In this document: positions 2,346 through 46,948 of the stretch, piece by piece
How positions within the stretch are numbered: the first letter of the stretch is position 1
Layout: each line of letters starts with the position of its first letter
From: a phage
NCBI GenBank assembly: GCA_024672315.1
Contig: GCA_024672315.1_4714.1
DNA length: 64,000 nt
Strand: one strand, 5' to 3'
Position numbers and translations under genes: made by a program
The notes under the pieces: generated by a model
Database searches by the model: none
The model's input: the letters and a program-made list of their open reading frames with translations, nothing else
What the model was told of the DNA's origin: nothing

Positions 2346-3244
2346 ACAGCCGCCTCTTCTTTTCGTTTAATATCGTAACGAAGTTTCTTCAGTCGCTCTT
2401 CGTGATATTCGATCTGCTGCTGGATTTTTGGATCGTTGCCCGCATTCTGTTGCTTTTGCTTCAGCGACAAAATCCAATACTCCAACGCTTGGGCTTCTTC
2501 TTTGGCCGCTTGTAACGACGCTTCTTCACGTTCACTGCGCCAGATGCGATAACGATAAATAAGCGTGTTGGTCATTTGAGTGTCGGACCATGAGCCCATA
2601 CGCATCGGGTCAGTATTACCCGCGTTGTATAAGCCATTACCAACACCGTCTTCATCAGAAACCACAACATCCGGGATTTTATCCAACCCAGCAAGAATCT
2701 GTTGTTTCTGTCCACACAGCACCTCGGTGGCGATGGCGAAACCGTACATGTTGGCGGTCAGGTAAGCAATCTCGTTTTTGGTGAAGAACTCACCAAGTGC
2801 TTTATCACCACCCGGCATGCTTTCGCAGATGACCGTTGCACGAAGTAGCGTACGAGCGTAGCTAACGTAGAAGCCCAGGGATTCAACAAGACGTACCAGA
2901 GCGGCTTCTTTGAAACTTAGGCCGTCAGCAGCAACATCGATTTCCAGGTTTTTGTTAACACGTTTAACAATTTCTGGAATCAGGTCAACAGCATTGCGTA
3001 GCGCTAAGTGAACGTTTTCTACCCAGCTTCCAGAGCGAACGCGGGTTAAACGCTGGTGCAGATCCTTATCAGCAAGTTTCCATAAGGCGCTTTCTCCCTT
3101 TTGGAGAAGCGAAGCGGATGTCTCGTAGTAAGGAATCGCGGTGTTGTTGATTTCGTCACGGATTGATTCGAGTGCGTCAGCAACACCGGTGCGTTTAAAA
3201 AGCGGCTTCAAACCGCGAATGAATTCTTTAAAATCGATTGCCAT
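2342..3244 (-). CDS. hypothetical protein
   Basis: 300-aa ORF with AGGTG RBS-like sequence upstream of ATG. Confidence 0.8.
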   Translation of the reverse strand: MAIDFKEFIRGLKPLFKRTGVADALESIRDEINNTAIPYYETSASLLQKGESALWKLADKDLHQRLTRVRSGSWVENVHLALRNAVDLIPEIVKRVNKNLEIDVAADGLSFKEAALVRLVESLGFYVSYARTLLRATVICESMPGGDKALGEFFTKNEIAYLTANMYGFAIATEVLCGQKQQILAGLDKIPDVVVSDEDGVGNGLYNAGNTDPMRMGSWSDTQMTNTLIYRYRIWRSEREEASLQAAKEEAQALEYWILSLKQKQQNAGNDPKIQQQIEYHEERLKKLRYDIKRKEEAAV

Positions 3245-4424: not shown

Positions 4425-5630
4425 ATGTCTAATTACTACGACCAAGCTATTCAAACCATTCAGGAGAATAATGCGTCGTTAACACCCGAAGCTGTGGAGG
4501 CAGCGGGCAATGCGGTGTTATTCACTGATTCGGATTGGGCAATAGCGCGGAAGAATATTCGTACCAGTGTCGGTCAAGGGACATACGAGGACAGTATCGC
4601 CAGACGGTATCGGAATGTGTCACCTATTCCGGGTAACAGTCCGATTCCGATTAACCGCGATCATGCCGGTATTACCTTCTTCACACGACCTAATTTACAT
4701 CTTACCGACGCGAACTTAAAACGAGATCGACGTTTGTGGTCGTTACGTACGGATAATCCTAACAGTATTCAGGCTGTTGTCCGTGACTACTTGGACCCTG
4801 TGGGTGCCAGAAAGCGGAACCATCGAGGACGTGCCATCGTCGATGAGCGCAATCCATTCATAAGTATACTGACGGACAACCTAACGGATATCAGCGGTTT
4901 CAATGACATGGAAATGCAGGTTTACCAGGGTAAACCGGGATTACGTCAAGAAACCGTTGTGATGGCTGACGGTTCGGTGGATATGTTTCAACCCTATAAC
5001 CTGAACGCGACATTCAAGAACATCATGGGTAACCCTATCATGTTCCTTCATTATATTTGGTTGATTTACATCGCAGGCGTGCATAATGGTGAACTGACGC
5101 CAAGCCCTCAGGCCATCATCGACAATGAAATGGATTATTGGACAAGATGTTATCGCATCATCCTGGATCCAACTGGGATGTATGTTCGTTATATCTTCGC
5201 ACCGACCGCGATGTTTCCCGTCGGGTTACCGATCGGTAATATGGCTAACTACAGCATCGATAAACCCTTCACGCAGGATAACGAACGTATCACTATCCCA
5301 TACCAAGCGGTTGGTAACAACGCATTCGATGAAATTCTGAAGGATGAATTCAATCGCCTTGTCCTGATGTTCTATTACGGTGAGAACGATACCCGTACGT
5401 TCCTTGAAGATGAGGAGTTGGTACCTATCTCACCCTACGAGCGTCGAATCATGTCGTATCGTGTCGATATGTATCCATTTATTCATCCGTTGACCTCAGA
5501 GCTTCTTTGGTTCGTACCCGCTGATGATTACAACGAATTCTATCTGGATCTTGAACCATCGGCGTTACCACCGGATACGTTCAGTCGCGATCTTGTCCGA
5601 ACCACCATTCCGCAAAATTACGAGGGATAA
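4425..5630 (+). CDS. hypothetical protein
   Basis: ORF track starts at TTG 4392; I prefer the first ATG (residue 12, MSNYYDQAIQ...) which has an AAGGAAAG RBS; only ~34 bp separates it from the divergent gene 3284..4390. Confidence 0.75.
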   Translation: MSNYYDQAIQTIQENNASLTPEAVEAAGNAVLFTDSDWAIARKNIRTSVGQGTYEDSIARRYRNVSPIPGNSPIPINRDHAGITFFTRPNLHLTDANLKRDRRLWSLRTDNPNSIQAVVRDYLDPVGARKRNHRGRAIVDERNPFISILTDNLTDISGFNDMEMQVYQGKPGLRQETVVMADGSVDMFQPYNLNATFKNIMGNPIMFLHYIWLIYIAGVHNGELTPSPQAIIDNEMDYWTRCYRIILDPTGMYVRYIFAPTAMFPVGLPIGNMANYSIDKPFTQDNERITIPYQAVGNNAFDEILKDEFNRLVLMFYYGENDTRTFLEDEELVPISPYERRIMSYRVDMYPFIHPLTSELLWFVPADDYNEFYLDLEPSALPPDTFSRDLVRTTIPQNYEG

Positions 5631-29133: not shown

Positions 29134-29607
29134 ATGCCAGTTTCATCCAAACCAAGAAAAAAATCCGTAGGAAACCCTAAAGCTCAGGAAACAACAGCAA
29201 TTCGTTGGGACGAGTTACGCGAACCTATCGAAAACTGCGAATTGTTATTAGGCACCCTGGGTGCGGCTATTTACCAAGCGACGCAGCCCTGTCGTTTACG
29301 ATTAACCCAAAACAAACGTGATGAGTTCGTTGCGTTATCAACAAGTACGAATAAAGATCTGACCGAACTTCAAACCGAGTTGACGACGATCAAGAACTCC
29401 ATCACACCGATGTACGGTAAAGAAGTTGATGAACAAAGTATTCTGTTACAGTACAACTACGGGATGTCGTTAATGAACATCCTGGAACGCGCATCCGATA
29501 TTCTGCGTCCTGACGTTGCACGCCTGAGCCAACTGCGTGTTGAAGGGATGGAGAACCAGATCCGATTCGCTAACAGTGTTAAATCTCAAGGAGCCACCGA
29601 AGCATGA
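29134..29607 (+). CDS. hypothetical protein
   Basis: 157-aa ORF with AGGAG RBS; stop overlaps next start (ATGA at 29604-29607). Confidence 0.7.
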   Translation: MPVSSKPRKKSVGNPKAQETTAIRWDELREPIENCELLLGTLGAAIYQATQPCRLRLTQNKRDEFVALSTSTNKDLTELQTELTTIKNSITPMYGKEVDEQSILLQYNYGMSLMNILERASDILRPDVARLSQLRVEGMENQIRFANSVKSQGATEA

Positions 29608-31289
29608 GCGAACAAGAAAAAGAAGTCGTGACGAATCAGGAAGCCGTTGAGCGTTCAGAGTCGTCCGCTGAAACAACGATTCCGGCAAGTTCCGATCCTG
29701 TTGGTTCCGCACAGCAGGAAAGTAAAGACGAAGTAAACACTACTAAAGAAGATGTAGTGGCTCCAGAAGCAACCCGTGAAGAAGAACCGTCACATCCGCC
29801 GTTGGTCGATTTCTCGAAGGCAACGATACGTTTCCAATGCGAAGACATTCGTCCTAAGAGTCCGAAGAAAACAAAACGCCAGCCGCTGGTGTTACCGCTG
29901 TATTCTCCGCGTGTACAGACAACGTATTACCGGGAATACATCAACGAAGCAATGGATACCGTACAAGCCATTGTCGCTCAACGCGGTAAACCGACAGACG
30001 AACAGTTTGATAAATTCAGTAAAGCGGTGGTGCAATCGGTTGCTGATGGTCAATACCATCCGCGTGGTCCAGCTCACGATCGCGCGTTGGAACGTAAGGG
30101 CAGTCAGTGGACTAACGTACCCGTAGACTCATCGGGTGTTGGTCGCGTTATTCCAGGCATTCCGCAACCGAACCATATTCCTGATGATGTCGAAGCGCCG
30201 CTGACAGGAACCGATGCGATCTATTTTGCTATCCGTAATACGAAATCAGGCGCACCTGCGGTAATGCCGTTATGGCATAGCGGTATTAAGCTGCAGTTCA
30301 ATCCGCCGTCAAATGAACGTGTTGCTATTATGCACGAACGTATTGCACGCGATAAAATCCTGGGTGGACGTGATAGCACCGGTTTCCTGTTTTCGGCAAC
30401 CTCGATTATCACCATGAAGCATGCTATCGAATTAGCATTAGAATGCTGTTACATGGCCAACGTACCGAACCTGGATATCCAGCGTTTGAAAGACATTATT
30501 CCGGTTACCGATGTTCCGGCGTTGTTGTTGAACGTGCTGGTAACCATGTACCCGTACGGATATCCTTACGTACAGACCTGCTATCAGAATCCAGAAACCT
30601 GCGACTATCGTGTCGAAGATACCGTAAGCTTTGCGAAACTCTATCAAGTTGACAACAGCGCAATTACCAAACGTATGCGACAGATCATGACCGAAGGTCC
30701 GGTCATGACCGATGAACTTTTGCGTGAGTATGCAAACGAGCTGGGTGAAACGAACTCCCGTACGCTGGATCTGTCCGACAACGGTTCTGTTATCATTGAA
30801 CTCGAAGTACCGAAGATCTCACGACAAATCGCCATGGGTGAACGTTGGTTAAGCGATACGCTGGAAGATCTGCGTGATATTCTATCGCGTCCGTCAATGA
30901 CCGAAGAAGAACGTGATCGTGTTATTCGTGAACGTCAGTTCTATAGCTGGATGCGTCAGTATGATGCGTGGATCAAATCTATGCATGTATCGGTAAACGG
31001 TACTATGCGTCGTGTAAGCGATGCAGATACGGCAACGGTATTAGCGCAGCTGTCTCGTGACAGCGACCTTCGTGAACGTTATATCGATGGGTTGATGCAA
31101 TTCATCGGTGATTCGACGATTGCGCTCGCAGCAATGCCTGCCTGGAAATGTCCGAAATGTAATGCCGATATTGCTGACAATCTGCGTGACCAGAAATACT
31201 ACGATCTGATTGCTTTGGATGTACCCCAGCTTTTTTTTACCCTAAACTCCGTCCAATCTCTTCAGGAGGGGATGGACGCGGTATTCTAA
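29604..31289 (+). CDS. hypothetical protein (561 aa), acidic N-terminus
   Basis: Long ORF; contains a T8 run at 31231..31238 forming a T_TTT_TTT heptamer in the zero frame 17 codons before its stop. Confidence 0.8.
   Translation: MSEQEKEVVTNQEAVERSESSAETTIPASSDPVGSAQQESKDEVNTTKEDVVAPEATREEEPSHPPLVDFSKATIRFQCEDIRPKSPKKTKRQPLVLPLYSPRVQTTYYREYINEAMDTVQAIVAQRGKPTDEQFDKFSKAVVQSVADGQYHPRGPAHDRALERKGSQWTNVPVDSSGVGRVIPGIPQPNHIPDDVEAPLTGTDAIYFAIRNTKSGAPAVMPLWHSGIKLQFNPPSNERVAIMHERIARDKILGGRDSTGFLFSATSIITMKHAIELALECCYMANVPNLDIQRLKDIIPVTDVPALLLNVLVTMYPYGYPYVQTCYQNPETCDYRVEDTVSFAKLYQVDNSAITKRMRQIMTEGPVMTDELLREYANELGETNSRTLDLSDNGSVIIELEVPKISRQIAMGERWLSDTLEDLRDILSRPSMTEEERDRVIRERQFYSWMRQYDAWIKSMHVSVNGTMRRVSDADTATVLAQLSRDSDLRERYIDGLMQFIGDSTIALAAMPAWKCPKCNADIADNLRDQKYYDLIALDVPQLFFTLNSVQSLQEGMDAVF
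31232..31238 (+). other. candidate -1 ribosomal frameshift slippery heptamer
   Basis: T_TTT_TTT in the zero frame of 29604..31289 (codons CTT TTT TTT at 31230-31238); -1 frame is open from 31190 to 31711. Confidence 0.35.
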
Positions 31290-31351
31290 TCGATCCGCGA
31301 TACGGGTTACACGACGGACAACTTGTTCGTAATGATGAAAAAATCTGGGAA

Positions 31352-31711
31352 TTGCTGTTAGCGCGTAAAGGCGACGGTGGCATGAAACTGAACATCGAAA
31401 TGGGTATTGCGTACGACACCATGTTTGGCTTGTACGACCGTGTTAACGAATGGACACCGTTGAAATGGGTTGCTCAGCATCCCGCTGAAGATCCCTGGGA
31501 CAGATTAGGGATTAAACCCTTAATCGAGGATTATGTTCGATTCGGTATTAAAGAGTTCATGACGCTGGATGCGTTTTTAAAAGCACCGTATCCTTACGCG
31601 CAAACGGTACTCAAAATCGCACAAGACGAACTGCGGAAACGTAGTGCGGTACTGGACGACGATGAGGACAAGTTACGACGAGAAGAAGAACGTTTACGAA
31701 ACGGAAAATAA
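31352..31711 (+). CDS. hypothetical protein; may be expressed as a -1 frameshift extension of 29604..31289
   Basis: ORF track start is TTG with no SD; the frame is open back to 31190 and is the -1 frame of the upstream gene; first ATG (31379) has only a weak, tightly spaced RBS. Confidence 0.45.
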   Translation: MLLARKGDGGMKLNIEMGIAYDTMFGLYDRVNEWTPLKWVAQHPAEDPWDRLGIKPLIEDYVRFGIKEFMTLDAFLKAPYPYAQTVLKIAQDELRKRSAVLDDDEDKLRREEERLRNGK

Positions 31712-31712
31712 A

Positions 31713-32222
31713 ATGGCGAGATTTACCAGTTTGATTGGGTTGGATATTTGGGAAACACCGGCTGACGTTCGGGTTATTCCTGTTAACACCGTCGGTGTGA
31801 TGGGACGTGGTCTTGCTAAGCAGGCAGCCGATCGTGTGCCCGGTCTTCTTGAAGCGTACCGTAAGCAATGTCAAGATGGGTTTAAGGTGGGCGAAGTCGT
31901 GTCATATCAGCATGGCGAGAACGATCAGCTCACCTACGTGTTGTTTCCATCAAAATCGGATTGGCGCGAAAAAACACGACGTGAGTATATCGTTAATGGT
32001 TTACTGGCGTTAAAAGCGTGGTTATTGGAGCTTCAGTTCGAAAGAGACGGCTTCTCATATCGGCGTCCGGCTGAACCGCTGATCGTTGCAATTCCTCCGG
32101 TTGGTTCTGGCTGCGGTAATATCGGCTACGGACAATCCGAAACAATCCAGCCTCAATGGGTACGCGCACAAATCAAACAGTATCTTGCCACCGTGCCAAA
32201 CGTTCATTTCTACTTGTTCTAA
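31713..32222 (+). CDS. macro domain protein (ADP-ribose binding/processing-like)
   Basis: ORF track starts at 31644 inside the previous gene; ATG at 31713 lies 2 nt after the upstream stop; motifs VIPVNTVGVMGRGLAKQ and IVAIPPVGSGCGNIGYG match the two glycine-rich macro-domain loops. Confidence 0.7.
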   Translation: MARFTSLIGLDIWETPADVRVIPVNTVGVMGRGLAKQAADRVPGLLEAYRKQCQDGFKVGEVVSYQHGENDQLTYVLFPSKSDWREKTRREYIVNGLLALKAWLLELQFERDGFSYRRPAEPLIVAIPPVGSGCGNIGYGQSETIQPQWVRAQIKQYLATVPNVHFYLF

Positions 32223-45407: not shown

Positions 45408-46238
45408 TTAATCGTAACTAAAATAAAGTTTGCTGCTGACGCCGCTATCGGAATGAGGTTTTAACACCAGAACAGAGCTTCCGAACGACGGAAGTATTGG
45501 AACATTTAAATCGTTTGCGTCGGCAACTTTTCCATTATAAACGACACTGGCTGTTGTGATGAGTTCCCAAGCCGAGGCATAACTCATTGAAATCAGCGAT
45601 GAGGCTAAACGGAATGCGTTGTATCCTTCGGGAGTATCTCCAACCGACATCGAACGTATCGCATCTTGCGGCGGTAAATTTAGCTTGATGCCGTATGTAC
45701 TGAATGTGTGGAAATCCCCTTGTTTACTATCTTCTGGATAATACGAGGTTAGTGGTTCTCGTACCGTAAACAGTTCGCTAATATCGGCACTTACATCTTT
45801 TCGTGCGAGGAATTGAAACGTACCGTACCACGATGCTGACGCGTCAGAAAGAACGGGAACAGATATGGTTTTCTCGCCGCTTTCAAATTTAACCTGTGAC
45901 GCTAACGCTGAAGAATCAAAGATCGTTAAATCGATCTTCAACCCATACTTCTTAAACAGCTGCGTTAAGCAGTCTGCTGTCGTCGTCTTATCAGCAACGA
46001 CAATAAAAGGTTGGTGTTTGATAAAGAGCTTATTAATATCGCGACGTTGAAGATAAACCTGTACGGGGTCTTCGACGTAGTAAACCGATTGTGGTGTGGG
46101 GGCTATAGAAAGGCGTAACCGACCTGATGCACCATACCAGGCTGGCGTTAACGTAATGTCTGACAGAGACAGCGGATGCTGGAGATAAGCGTTTATTTTA
46201 GATAACGCTTCTTCCTGCCACGATGCTTCAGGATACAT
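45408..46238 (-). CDS. hypothetical protein with the shared N-terminal module
   Basis: 276 aa; ..VQVYLQRRDINKLFIKHQPFIVV..YGLKIDLTIFD resembles the N-terminal module of 33263..35875 and 41064..41591. Confidence 0.7.
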   Translation of the reverse strand: MYPEASWQEEALSKINAYLQHPLSLSDITLTPAWYGASGRLRLSIAPTPQSVYYVEDPVQVYLQRRDINKLFIKHQPFIVVADKTTTADCLTQLFKKYGLKIDLTIFDSSALASQVKFESGEKTISVPVLSDASASWYGTFQFLARKDVSADISELFTVREPLTSYYPEDSKQGDFHTFSTYGIKLNLPPQDAIRSMSVGDTPEGYNAFRLASSLISMSYASAWELITTASVVYNGKVADANDLNVPILPSFGSSVLVLKPHSDSGVSSKLYFSYD

Positions 46239-46296: not shown

Positions 46297-46351
46297 CAAA
46301 AAAAAACGAAAAATAGGAAAACGGTGTTCATCCCTAAAAAGGATGAACACC
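46297..46351 (-). terminator. rho-independent terminator candidate
   Basis: Perfect 11-bp hairpin GGTGTTCATCC ctaaaaa GGATGAACACC followed on the minus strand by GTTTTCCTATTTTTCGTTTTTTTTT; directly downstream of 46373..46948. Confidence 0.75.
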
Positions 46352-46372: not shown

Positions 46373-46948
46373 TTAGTAAGGAATCAGATCGTTAAGCTTT
46401 TCTTCTTCAATGACAAAGAAGTTGTTCTGGTCGTCTAAATCTGTTAACAGGACTTGTCCGACAGTAAAGCAAGTGCCGCCCTTCTTAGGCATCCATACCG
46501 GCTCATTCGTTACCTTATCGGGATACCATTTGAAACGATTGGTGTCTAAGAAGAACGCTGCTTTGTTCGCTTTATCGGTTGAACGATAGCTAACCAATGC
46601 AGGCCACTCAATCCAGGTGTTTGTGCACGGCACATGTAAAGGATACCATGCGCGCCAGCGTTTGCCTGGCCTGTTAGGATCAACCCAATACTCGGCAGTC
46701 AATACAGCATCTTTATAATGTTTCTGCATTAACATTTCGAGCACAAGCTCATTGCCTTTAGACGCATCTAAAGTCACTTCCGTCATATAAAGCGATTTAG
46801 GTAATTCAGACTGTTTTGCGGGTGTTACAACACCGGTAACCAACGGTCTGCTCGGTTTACGTTTCTGTTCTTTCCGACGTGTGTAAAAGAATAGTCCGAT
46901 AGATACAGCAACAAGGATAATAAACAACACTACCTTAATCCAATTCAT
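46373..46948 (-). CDS. hypothetical membrane-anchored protein
   Basis: 191 aa; N-terminal helix WIKVVLFIILVAVSIGLFFY followed by RRKEQKRK; stop followed by a hairpin plus T-run terminator. Confidence 0.7.
   Translation of the reverse strand: MNWIKVVLFIILVAVSIGLFFYTRRKEQKRKPSRPLVTGVVTPAKQSELPKSLYMTEVTLDASKGNELVLEMLMQKHYKDAVLTAEYWVDPNRPGKRWRAWYPLHVPCTNTWIEWPALVSYRSTDKANKAAFFLDTNRFKWYPDKVTNEPVWMPKKGGTCFTVGQVLLTDLDDQNNFFVIEEEKLNDLIPY

Follow-up and report, generated by a model that had tools for sequence, protein, structure and literature searches.

Comparative evidence for a probable programmed -1 frameshift in cg18, a core gene of nucleus-forming jumbo phages

The 64,000-nucleotide stretch of phage DNA analysed here (contig GCA_024672315.1_4714.1 of GenBank assembly GCA_024672315.1, hereafter the window) carries a 561-codon open reading frame (ORF) at 29604..31289 (gene 1) and, behind it, a small ORF that ends at 31711. 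The subject of this work is a run of eight T (T8) near the 3' end of gene 1, a candidate site of programmed -1 frameshifting that would join the two. This region is 95.4% identical in nucleotide sequence to positions 90831..92917 of Escherichia phage vB_EcoM_Goslar, a nucleus-forming jumbo phage whose gp081 and gp082, both labelled "hypothetical protein" in the Goslar record, are the counterparts of the large and the small ORF, and in which the T8 run is identical and the gene is split in the same way. In Table S3 of Prichard et al. (2023; PMC10299810), Goslar gp081 appears together with phiKZ gp077 and RAY gp267 as core gene cg18, a "hypothetical protein"; according to that table cg18 is not limited to chimallin-encoding phages, and gp082 was not found among its entries cg1-cg58. 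Homology and a conserved neighbourhood both identify gene 1 as the Chimalliviridae core gene cg18. The features of the locus are the following.

29604..31289, plus strand: zero-frame ORF for the short form of core protein cg18, 561 amino acids, from the ORF list and from homology to Goslar gp081 and phiKZ gp077.
31232..31238, plus strand: slippery heptamer T_TTT_TTT in the X_XXY_YYZ register, with TTT 31233-35 in the P site and TTT 31236-38 in the A site.
31238..31711, plus strand: predicted trans-frame extension of 157 codons and a stop, read in the -1 frame, which with residues 1-545 would make a 702-residue long form.
31238..31289, plus strand: dual-coding overlap, where the zero frame encodes the C-terminal tail of the short form (TLNSVQSLQEGMDAVF, then the stop) and the -1 frame would encode the start of the extension (YPKLRPISSGGDGRGIL).
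31248..31276, plus strand: candidate stimulatory hairpin 9 nt 3' of the heptamer, in which UCCGUCC (31248-54) would pair with GGAUGGA (31270-76).
31289..31351, plus strand: apparent intergenic gap, coding in the -1 frame and with no ATG, GTG or TTG.

The T8 run occupies 31231..31238, where the codons of gene 1 read GTA CCC CAG CTT TTT TTT ACC CTA AAC. The codon CTT at 31230-32 supplies the first T of the heptamer, which by sequence and by register is one on which both tRNAs can re-pair after a slip. Downstream of it the zero frame has 16 sense codons and then the stop, and the -1 frame, open from 31190 to the stop at 31709..31711, reaches 140 codons beyond the zero-frame stop. Between 31190 and 31351 the -1 frame holds no ATG, GTG or TTG; the earliest TTG is at 31352 and the earliest ATG at 31379, that is, 38 and 47 codons from the slip site. 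The gap at 31289..31351 is therefore translatable only by ribosomes that are already in the -1 frame. The conceptual product of a -1 slip has 545 + 157 = 702 residues, and its extension includes the conventionally called ORF (TTG 31352 or ATG 31379 to 31711, equivalent to Goslar gp082). These results agree with the original prediction, drawn from the window alone, of a T_TTT_TTT heptamer in the correct -1 register near the end of the 561-codon gene (as the codons CTT TTT TTT confirm), a -1 frame open from 31190 to 31711, a downstream ORF lacking a good initiation site (neither TTG 31352 nor ATG 31379 has a convincing Shine-Dalgarno sequence) and a fusion of roughly 700 residues upon slippage. 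The predicted tryptic junction peptide of the long form is YYDLIALDVPQLFFYPK, the short form being marked by YYDLIALDVPQLFFTLNSVQSLQEGMDAVF, and the predicted long-form peptides encoded 5' of any start codon are LRPISSGGDGR, GILIDPR, YGLHDGQLVR and IWELLLAR.

The conceptual fusion was 98% identical in amino acids to the Goslar gp081+gp082 region and, by tblastn, matched 158 GenBank phage records. The match to phiKZ PHIKZ077 (24% identity, E 1e-26) ended exactly at residue 545, the proposed slip position, and PHROGs divides the fusion into family 4585 (E 7.5e-65), whose match stops at residue 545, and family 12109, which covers residues 602-688; neither family has an assigned function. The protein clusters of the window proteins have 355 and 59 members. 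Proteins identical or nearly identical to those of the window occur on several hundred contigs (about 236-259 kb each) from assemblies that carry the labels E. coli, Salmonella enterica, Shigella sonnei and Shigella flexneri, and hence virulent jumbo phages of the Goslar type are widespread in bacterial-isolate sequencing data. No fused protein of about 700 amino acids was present among the 30 cluster members listed, all of which had 552-567 or 109-119 amino acids except for three truncated fragments, and none among 18 protein database matches. An exhaustive HMMER search with the extension returned 13 matches, all of them stand-alone proteins of 107-158 amino acids and none a natural fusion, and word-indexed protein searches with the single fusion or with a 22-sequence profile returned only five close homologs, none fused.

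We compared the junction in 62 non-identical homologous loci from Pseudomonas, Erwinia, Xanthomonas, Klebsiella and Bacillus phages and from metagenomes, whose amino-acid identity to the window went down to 16-20%. The GenBank phages compared were phiKZ, Noxifer, Eowyn, LucasX and Bacillus phage AgentSmith, and further loci came from three intermediate relatives in public assemblies (51-87% identity) and from 58 IMG/VR contigs. In every evaluable locus the downstream ORF was in the -1 frame relative to gene 1, never in the +1 or 0 frame, and this -1 frame was open from a point 5' of the homologous site and extended 134-187 codons past the gene-1 stop; the +1 frame was closed within a few codons in nearly all loci. 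The site itself read T_TTT_TTT in 42 loci, T_TTT_TTC in nine, G_TTT_TTT in seven, G_TTT_TTC in three and T_TTT_TTA in one, which amounts to a full T_TTT_TTN heptamer in 52/62 loci and to G_TTT_TTY in 10/62. The first Phe codon was TTT in all 62, compared with a background of 47% in the same genes (499 TTT vs 562 TTC), and in three loci (L012, L013 and L019) the whole gene has no TTT codon besides the two at the slip site. A TTT_TTN core stood at the homologous position in phiKZ, Eowyn, LucasX, the Bacillus phage and the 58 IMG/VR contigs, and the nucleotide string TTTTTTTTACCCTAAACTCC was invariant among the relatives at 51-87% protein identity. One of the IMG/VR relatives (L038) carries a T9 run (T_TTT_TTT_T, at 2546..2554).

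Two aspects of this conservation bear on what is being conserved. In AgentSmith the zero-frame residues have changed to Val-Phe-Leu (GTT TTT TTA), yet the heptamer is still a slippery one (T_TTT_TTA), and selection has therefore acted on the nucleotides as well as on the protein. In addition, constraint differs between positions: the first codon had T at its wobble base in 62/62 loci, whereas the last base (Z; T, C and A were seen) was C or A in 13/62. The former is invariant because it must re-pair in the -1 A site, and the asymmetry, as read from the alignments, fits the X_XXY_YYZ rule and not a run-length rule. That the site is more than a chance run follows from its being kept in all homologous loci examined and not from statistics within the window, where T8 is the sole T run of at least eight. 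This comparative evidence supports the programmed -1 frameshift put forward in the original prediction, since the homologs remain split and all 62 retain the TTT_TTN core; on the question then raised, of whether homologs are fused or keep the same T run, Goslar has an identical T8, the distant relatives are split and have a slippery site, and none is fused.

An alignment of the -1-frame peptides from 51 loci, begun at the slip position, showed conservation over their whole length, with the consensus YP..P…GHV..P.FGL…AYD..YGI…P..L.LV..HP.ED…G.SL.EFL..LPR. Its FG motif is near-invariant (F in 49/51 loci, G in 45/51) and lies 5' of the first ATG, GTG or TTG in 35 of the 51 loci and 5' of the first ATG in 43. 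The extension of L025 lacks start codons over 151 of 154 codons; for L029 and L033 the start-less stretch is about 100 codons, for the L058 group 117-120 of 201, for phiKZ 85 of 165 and for AgentSmith 87 of 164. L025 (2536..3033), whose first start is at codon 151 of 154, is the cleanest natural case for an experimental test of frameshifting. In the gap at 31289..31351, substitutions within the clade of the window concentrated at the third position of the -1 frame: the counts at positions 1/2/3 were 3/0/6 between the window and L010 and 7/5/15 between the window and L008, and the lone difference between the window and Goslar leaves the -1-frame residue unchanged. Downstream of the gap, where coding is undisputed, the counts were 5/3/33. 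These patterns show purifying selection on the start-less trans-frame region, and because conserved residues of the extension are out of reach of initiation, ribosomes must enter them in the -1 frame. The locus has the phylogenetically conserved site and the initiation-unreachable region under purifying selection that characterise canonical -1 frameshifting.

We believe that the T8 site is very probably a genuine and anciently conserved programmed -1 frameshift site that gives a second, 702-residue version of the cg18 protein, and ribosomal -1 slippage at T_TTT_TTT is, in our judgement, the best explanation for it and a likely one. The majority of ribosomes would read through the cg18 gene (29604..31289) and make the 561-residue short form, and a minority, with two tRNA-Phe on the TTT TTT of the heptamer, would slip back by one base. 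Both tRNAs could re-pair perfectly with U UUU UU, and translation would go on in the -1 frame from TAC (31238-40) CCT AAA through the gap and the small ORF to 31709..31711. The product would be the long form, made of residues 1-545 and a 157-residue, mostly helical C-terminal domain. Both forms would be kept by selection, so that the site would set a fixed short-to-long ratio of a core protein that has been detected in virion preparations. Sharma et al. (2014; PMC4066793) found H_HH.U_UU.Y among the most efficient -1 heptamers measured in E. coli, where the tetramers ranked A_AAG >> U_UUC > U_UUU. The U_UUY core kept in the family matches these efficient motifs, and most loci complete the full heptamer.

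The protein data available for Goslar are compatible with a minor long form, though weak as evidence. In Table S4 of a label-free liquid chromatography-mass spectrometry study of Goslar virions (preprint 10.64898/2026.04.21.720040), gp081 has 24 peptides that cover 49% of it, with a median estimate of 22 copies per virion (range 15-35), and gp082 has one peptide with 11% coverage and about three copies (range 2-5). The gp082:gp081 molar ratio calculated from these copy numbers is ~0.14, the gp082 value resting on that single peptide, and it is weakly indicative of the ratio expected for a frameshift of ~10-15% if the gp082 peptides derive from the long form; the efficiency of the site may perhaps be about 10-15%. 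The database searched in that study included no fusion, so that junction peptides could not be identified, and the available supplementary text of the study yielded no data at the level of single peptides.

A downstream structure may also take part in the frameshifting. The candidate hairpin at 31248..31276 is followed by a second predicted one at ~31277..31299, across the zero-frame stop, and minimum free energy folds of the window hairpin compared with shuffles gave z = -2.3 to -2.6. Comparable hairpins lie 7-10 nt downstream of the site in the clades L025-27 and L029/33/36. The invariance of the 5' arm could be explained equally well by dual coding. No match to Rfam was found in 31000..31800, and no Shine-Dalgarno-like element is visible upstream of the window site.

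Several observations weigh against ribosomal slippage or temper it. Downstream structure is not family-wide, as the 60-nt folds had a mean z of -0.4 with z < -2 in only 7/51 loci, and within the Goslar clade the 3' arm of the hairpin is out of register in L008 and L009, covariation not being demonstrable there. In the 10/62 loci whose heptamer begins with G, full re-pairing is open to the A-site tRNA alone, and a lower slippage efficiency is therefore predicted for them. Independent lineages number fewer than the 62 loci (L055-L068, for example, belong to one clade). The window does have the TTG at 31352 and the ATG at 31379, and some independent initiation of a 109-119-residue product may take place. 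As to the virion data, the mass-spectrometry ratio depends on one peptide, and the CsCl-purified preparation also held PhuZ (~170 copies per virion) and chimallin (~126 copies) according to the same preprint; with these two above 100 copies, contamination by proteins foreign to the virion is evident, and the virion association of the low-copy gp081 and gp082 is not secure. Finally, all evidence for the frameshift is comparative.

The same products would be expected if RNA polymerase (RNAP), instead of the ribosome, slipped. In such programmed transcriptional slippage, RNAP would stutter on T8 and a fraction of U9 mRNAs would encode an identical 702-residue protein (...LFFYPK...), the slipping enzyme being probably the phage-encoded multisubunit non-virion RNAP inside the phage nucleus. 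The protein product is indistinguishable from the ribosomal one, T7-T9 runs are present in the window, Goslar and many relatives, and the synonymous base before the run is T in 52/62 loci, a T that both completes the heptamer and makes the run longer. Two points favour it at the expense of ribosomal slippage: no universal ribosomal stimulator structure was found, and U7/U8 runs are prone to transcriptional slippage, Sharma et al. (PMC4066793) stating that UUUUUUU may cause mRNA insertions and deletions. However, the split is kept with only T5 (G_TTT_TTC, three loci) or T6 (G_TTT_TTT, seven loci, and some T_TTT_TTC). Judged from bacterial A9 and T9 cases, T5 and T6 runs are too short for efficient RNAP slippage. 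Runs that undergo it typically have at least nine bases in the bacterial examples and would be kept regardless of register, whereas the window has T8 and its homologs T5-T9. A run-length model would also predict a symmetric pressure, and not a first-codon wobble base that is T in every locus beside a last base that varies, and several clades present downstream hairpins at the spacing of ribosomal stimulators. We infer that it is the ribosome rather than RNAP that slips, and we consider transcriptional slippage unlikely.

A simpler possibility would be two ordinary genes, the small ORF being started at TTG 31352, at ATG 31379 or by termination-reinitiation, and the T run being just a pair of Phe codons. 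Every genome record examined annotates separate ORFs, gene callers find a start in many loci, and the exhaustive searches return only stand-alone small proteins, an outcome that itself reflects gene calling. The zero-frame Phe-Phe is also conserved (F545 is invariant) and accounts for part of the T-richness. It does not account for a first Phe codon that is TTT in 62/62 loci against 47% in the background, nor for the Bacillus homolog that lost Phe-Phe and retained a slippery heptamer. Two independent genes would moreover leave unexplained why all the second ORFs are in the -1 frame, with that frame open as far back as the site, why the start-less gap has a coding-type substitution pattern, and why conserved motifs of the extension precede any ATG, GTG or TTG in 35/51 loci, with the first start of L025 at codon 151 of 154. 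The annotated starts are not conserved, and those of the window (TTG and ATG) come without convincing Shine-Dalgarno sequences. We regard this reading as very improbable.

Lastly, the original prediction had left room for a homopolymer error that splits a true 702-codon gene (real T9), to which a recent frameshift pseudogene may be added, and although eight-base homopolymers are error-prone on some platforms and one added T would join the frames, this alternative is practically discarded, sequencing error being excluded, because Goslar, the 158 GenBank phage records, the 58 IMG/VR contigs and the listed members of clusters recorded on several hundred independently assembled contigs all show this split, with no fused homolog among those members or among the 18 database matches, and because both parts are under purifying selection in relatives down to about 16-20% identity.

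As a mechanism, ribosomal -1 slippage in cg18 would be canonical, and its layout comes closest to that of two phage systems, the tail assembly chaperone pairs and T7 gene 10A/10B. The frameshift in the tail assembly chaperone genes of tailed phages (gpG/gpGT of lambda and analogous pairs) was reportedly described by Xu, Hendrix and Duda in 2004. As in G/GT, slippage by -1 on a heptamer only a few codons from the end of the upstream ORF would yield a minor C-terminally extended form beside a major short one, the arrangement is kept across very divergent phages, including those that no longer share sequence similarity, and annotators usually call two ORFs. In contrast, the upstream part has ~545 codons here (~100-150 in the chaperones), the cg18 locus is not between the tail tube and tape measure genes (in Goslar, the tail tube gp217 and the sheath gp218 are far away), the heptamer is U-only and not G_GGA_AAG, and cg18 protein was detected in virion preparations, whereas the chaperone is not a virion component. 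Neither the small upstream ORF of the chaperones nor profile similarity to them was found, and we rejected an identity as tail assembly chaperone on the grounds of gene context, size and lack of homology.

Phage T7 gene 10A/10B, for the major and minor capsid proteins, undergoes a -1 frameshift at a U-rich site that contains U_UUC (G_GUU_UUC) and gives ~10% of a longer form, which is incorporated with the short form. Here too the slip is near the 3' end of the gene, the Goslar gp082:gp081 ratio of ~0.14 is of the same order as the ~10% of T7, and the G_TTT_TTC variant of the Noxifer-like clade is like the T7 site. The two systems have no sequence relationship, however: cg18 is not a capsid protein (the Goslar major capsid protein is gp41), its extension is a conserved domain of ~157 residues, and its site is conserved over a far wider evolutionary range. 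Transcriptional slippage sites of bacteria include Thermus dnaX (A9), Shigella mxiE (T9) and those of insertion sequence (IS) elements. They also link two frames by a homopolymeric T or A run with the same protein outcome, but the runs of the cg18 family fall to T5-T6 and the constraint follows the codon register. E. coli dnaX tau/gamma and IS3/IS911 orfA-orfB show canonical -1 frameshifting at X_XXY_YYZ heptamers read by host ribosomes, and U_UU.U_UU.C as well as the U_UU.Y tetramers occur among IS elements (PMC4066793). Unlike E. coli dnaX, which has A_AAA_AAG, an upstream Shine-Dalgarno-like element and a strong hairpin, the cg18 site shows no such element and its structure is not family-wide; in dnaX, moreover, the frameshift product is the shorter form.

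The proteins themselves gave few clues about function. Profile searches of Pfam, NCBIfam, PHROGs and the Protein Data Bank (PDB) yielded no function and no match to a chaperone family. The AlphaFold model of the extension is helical and ends in a long helix, with a mean predicted local distance difference test (pLDDT) score of 70 and values above 90 over roughly the last 60 residues, and no fold match to it was found in the PDB; the model of gene 1, built with five close sequences, had a pLDDT of 34 and was not interpreted. Four cysteines of gene 1 (C326, C333, C516 and C519) are invariant or nearly so in relatives at 16-25% identity, forming a C-x6-C pair and, ~190 residues later, a C-P-x-C pair, a layout that suggests a zinc site made from two distant pairs; four members gave a weak, sub-threshold match to a YgiT-type zinc finger. 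Gene 1 has 561 codons in the window, 554 in Goslar and 552-567 in the other cluster members listed, and these differences are probably located in the N-terminal 60-100 residues, which are acidic, of low complexity and poorly conserved in the family, the stretches concerned being 29604..29800 in the window and 3001..3180 in locus L001 of Goslar. Three GenBank records label the protein "baseplate hub (assembly protein)", a name that we did not adopt because the profile searches gave it no support.

Gene 1 lies downstream of an RNAP beta-like subunit gene, a 292-codon ORF and a 157-codon ORF and upstream of a macro-domain gene, and capsid protein genes are also nearby; the small upstream ORF and the RNAP subunit are common to the window, Goslar and phiKZ. 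The 157-codon ORF (29134..29607) stops inside the gene-1 start codon (ATGA overlap, 29604..29607), and the same small ORF precedes gene 1 in phiKZ (gp078), Noxifer, Eowyn, AgentSmith and LucasX. The overlap and the retention of this ORF suggest translational coupling in a conserved operon of two genes or three products. On the other side, the Goslar record places the start of the macro-domain gene (5038..5598 of locus L001) 50 nt inside gp082, and the mechanical ORF of the window (31644..32222) starts at GTG 31644; ATG 31714, three bases past the stop codon of the extension, looks like a more natural start. Elsewhere in the window, the longest homopolymer is an A9 at 46298..46306, which is intergenic and outside any coding overlap, in the 134-nt gap between the minus-strand ORFs 45408..46238 and 46373..46948.

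We found no prior report of a frameshift in phiKZ gp77, Goslar gp81 or cg18 in the searchable literature, although papers outside it may mention one; the mentions of "gp77" in three papers refer to other proteins. Likewise, no joined coding sequence was annotated in the phage records examined, among the ~120 listed of the 158 GenBank homolog records. Strong comparative evidence supports, therefore, a previously unannotated and anciently conserved -1 frameshift in a core gene of the nucleus-forming jumbo phages. Its mechanism is a textbook one, and the finding adds to known biology without overturning it. It would call for a corrected annotation of the 158 GenBank phage records at this locus, and likewise of the Goslar-like contigs of bacterial assemblies, and would add a deeply conserved viral recoding site to the catalogue. 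Synonymous changes at the site could give short-only and long-only mutants, a precise genetic handle on the function of a core protein, and structural and proteomic studies of virions may find a ~78-kDa protein worth searching for.

It is conceivable, though we regard it as rather doubtful, that this recoding is tied to chimallivirus biology itself, either because phage machinery performs or tunes the slippage or because the cg18 ratio sets the stoichiometry of a low-copy complex. In the first case, slippage would be due to the phage's own multisubunit RNAP in the phage nucleus, or to host ribosomes modulated by phage ribosome-binding proteins. In the second, a complex of ~20 short and ~3 long copies would be packaged in the virion and act at injection or early in infection, and the 157-residue extension would be a previously unrecognised core domain of all nucleus-forming phages and their Bacillus-infecting relatives. 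On the broader point, cg18 is one of roughly 68 core genes of nucleus-forming jumbo phages; our results indicate that the gene gives rise to a longer product besides the short one, with the small downstream ORF encoding a part of that protein, and that this arrangement is older than the divergence of phiKZ, Goslar, the jumbo phages of Erwinia, Xanthomonas and Vibrio, and even those of Bacillus.

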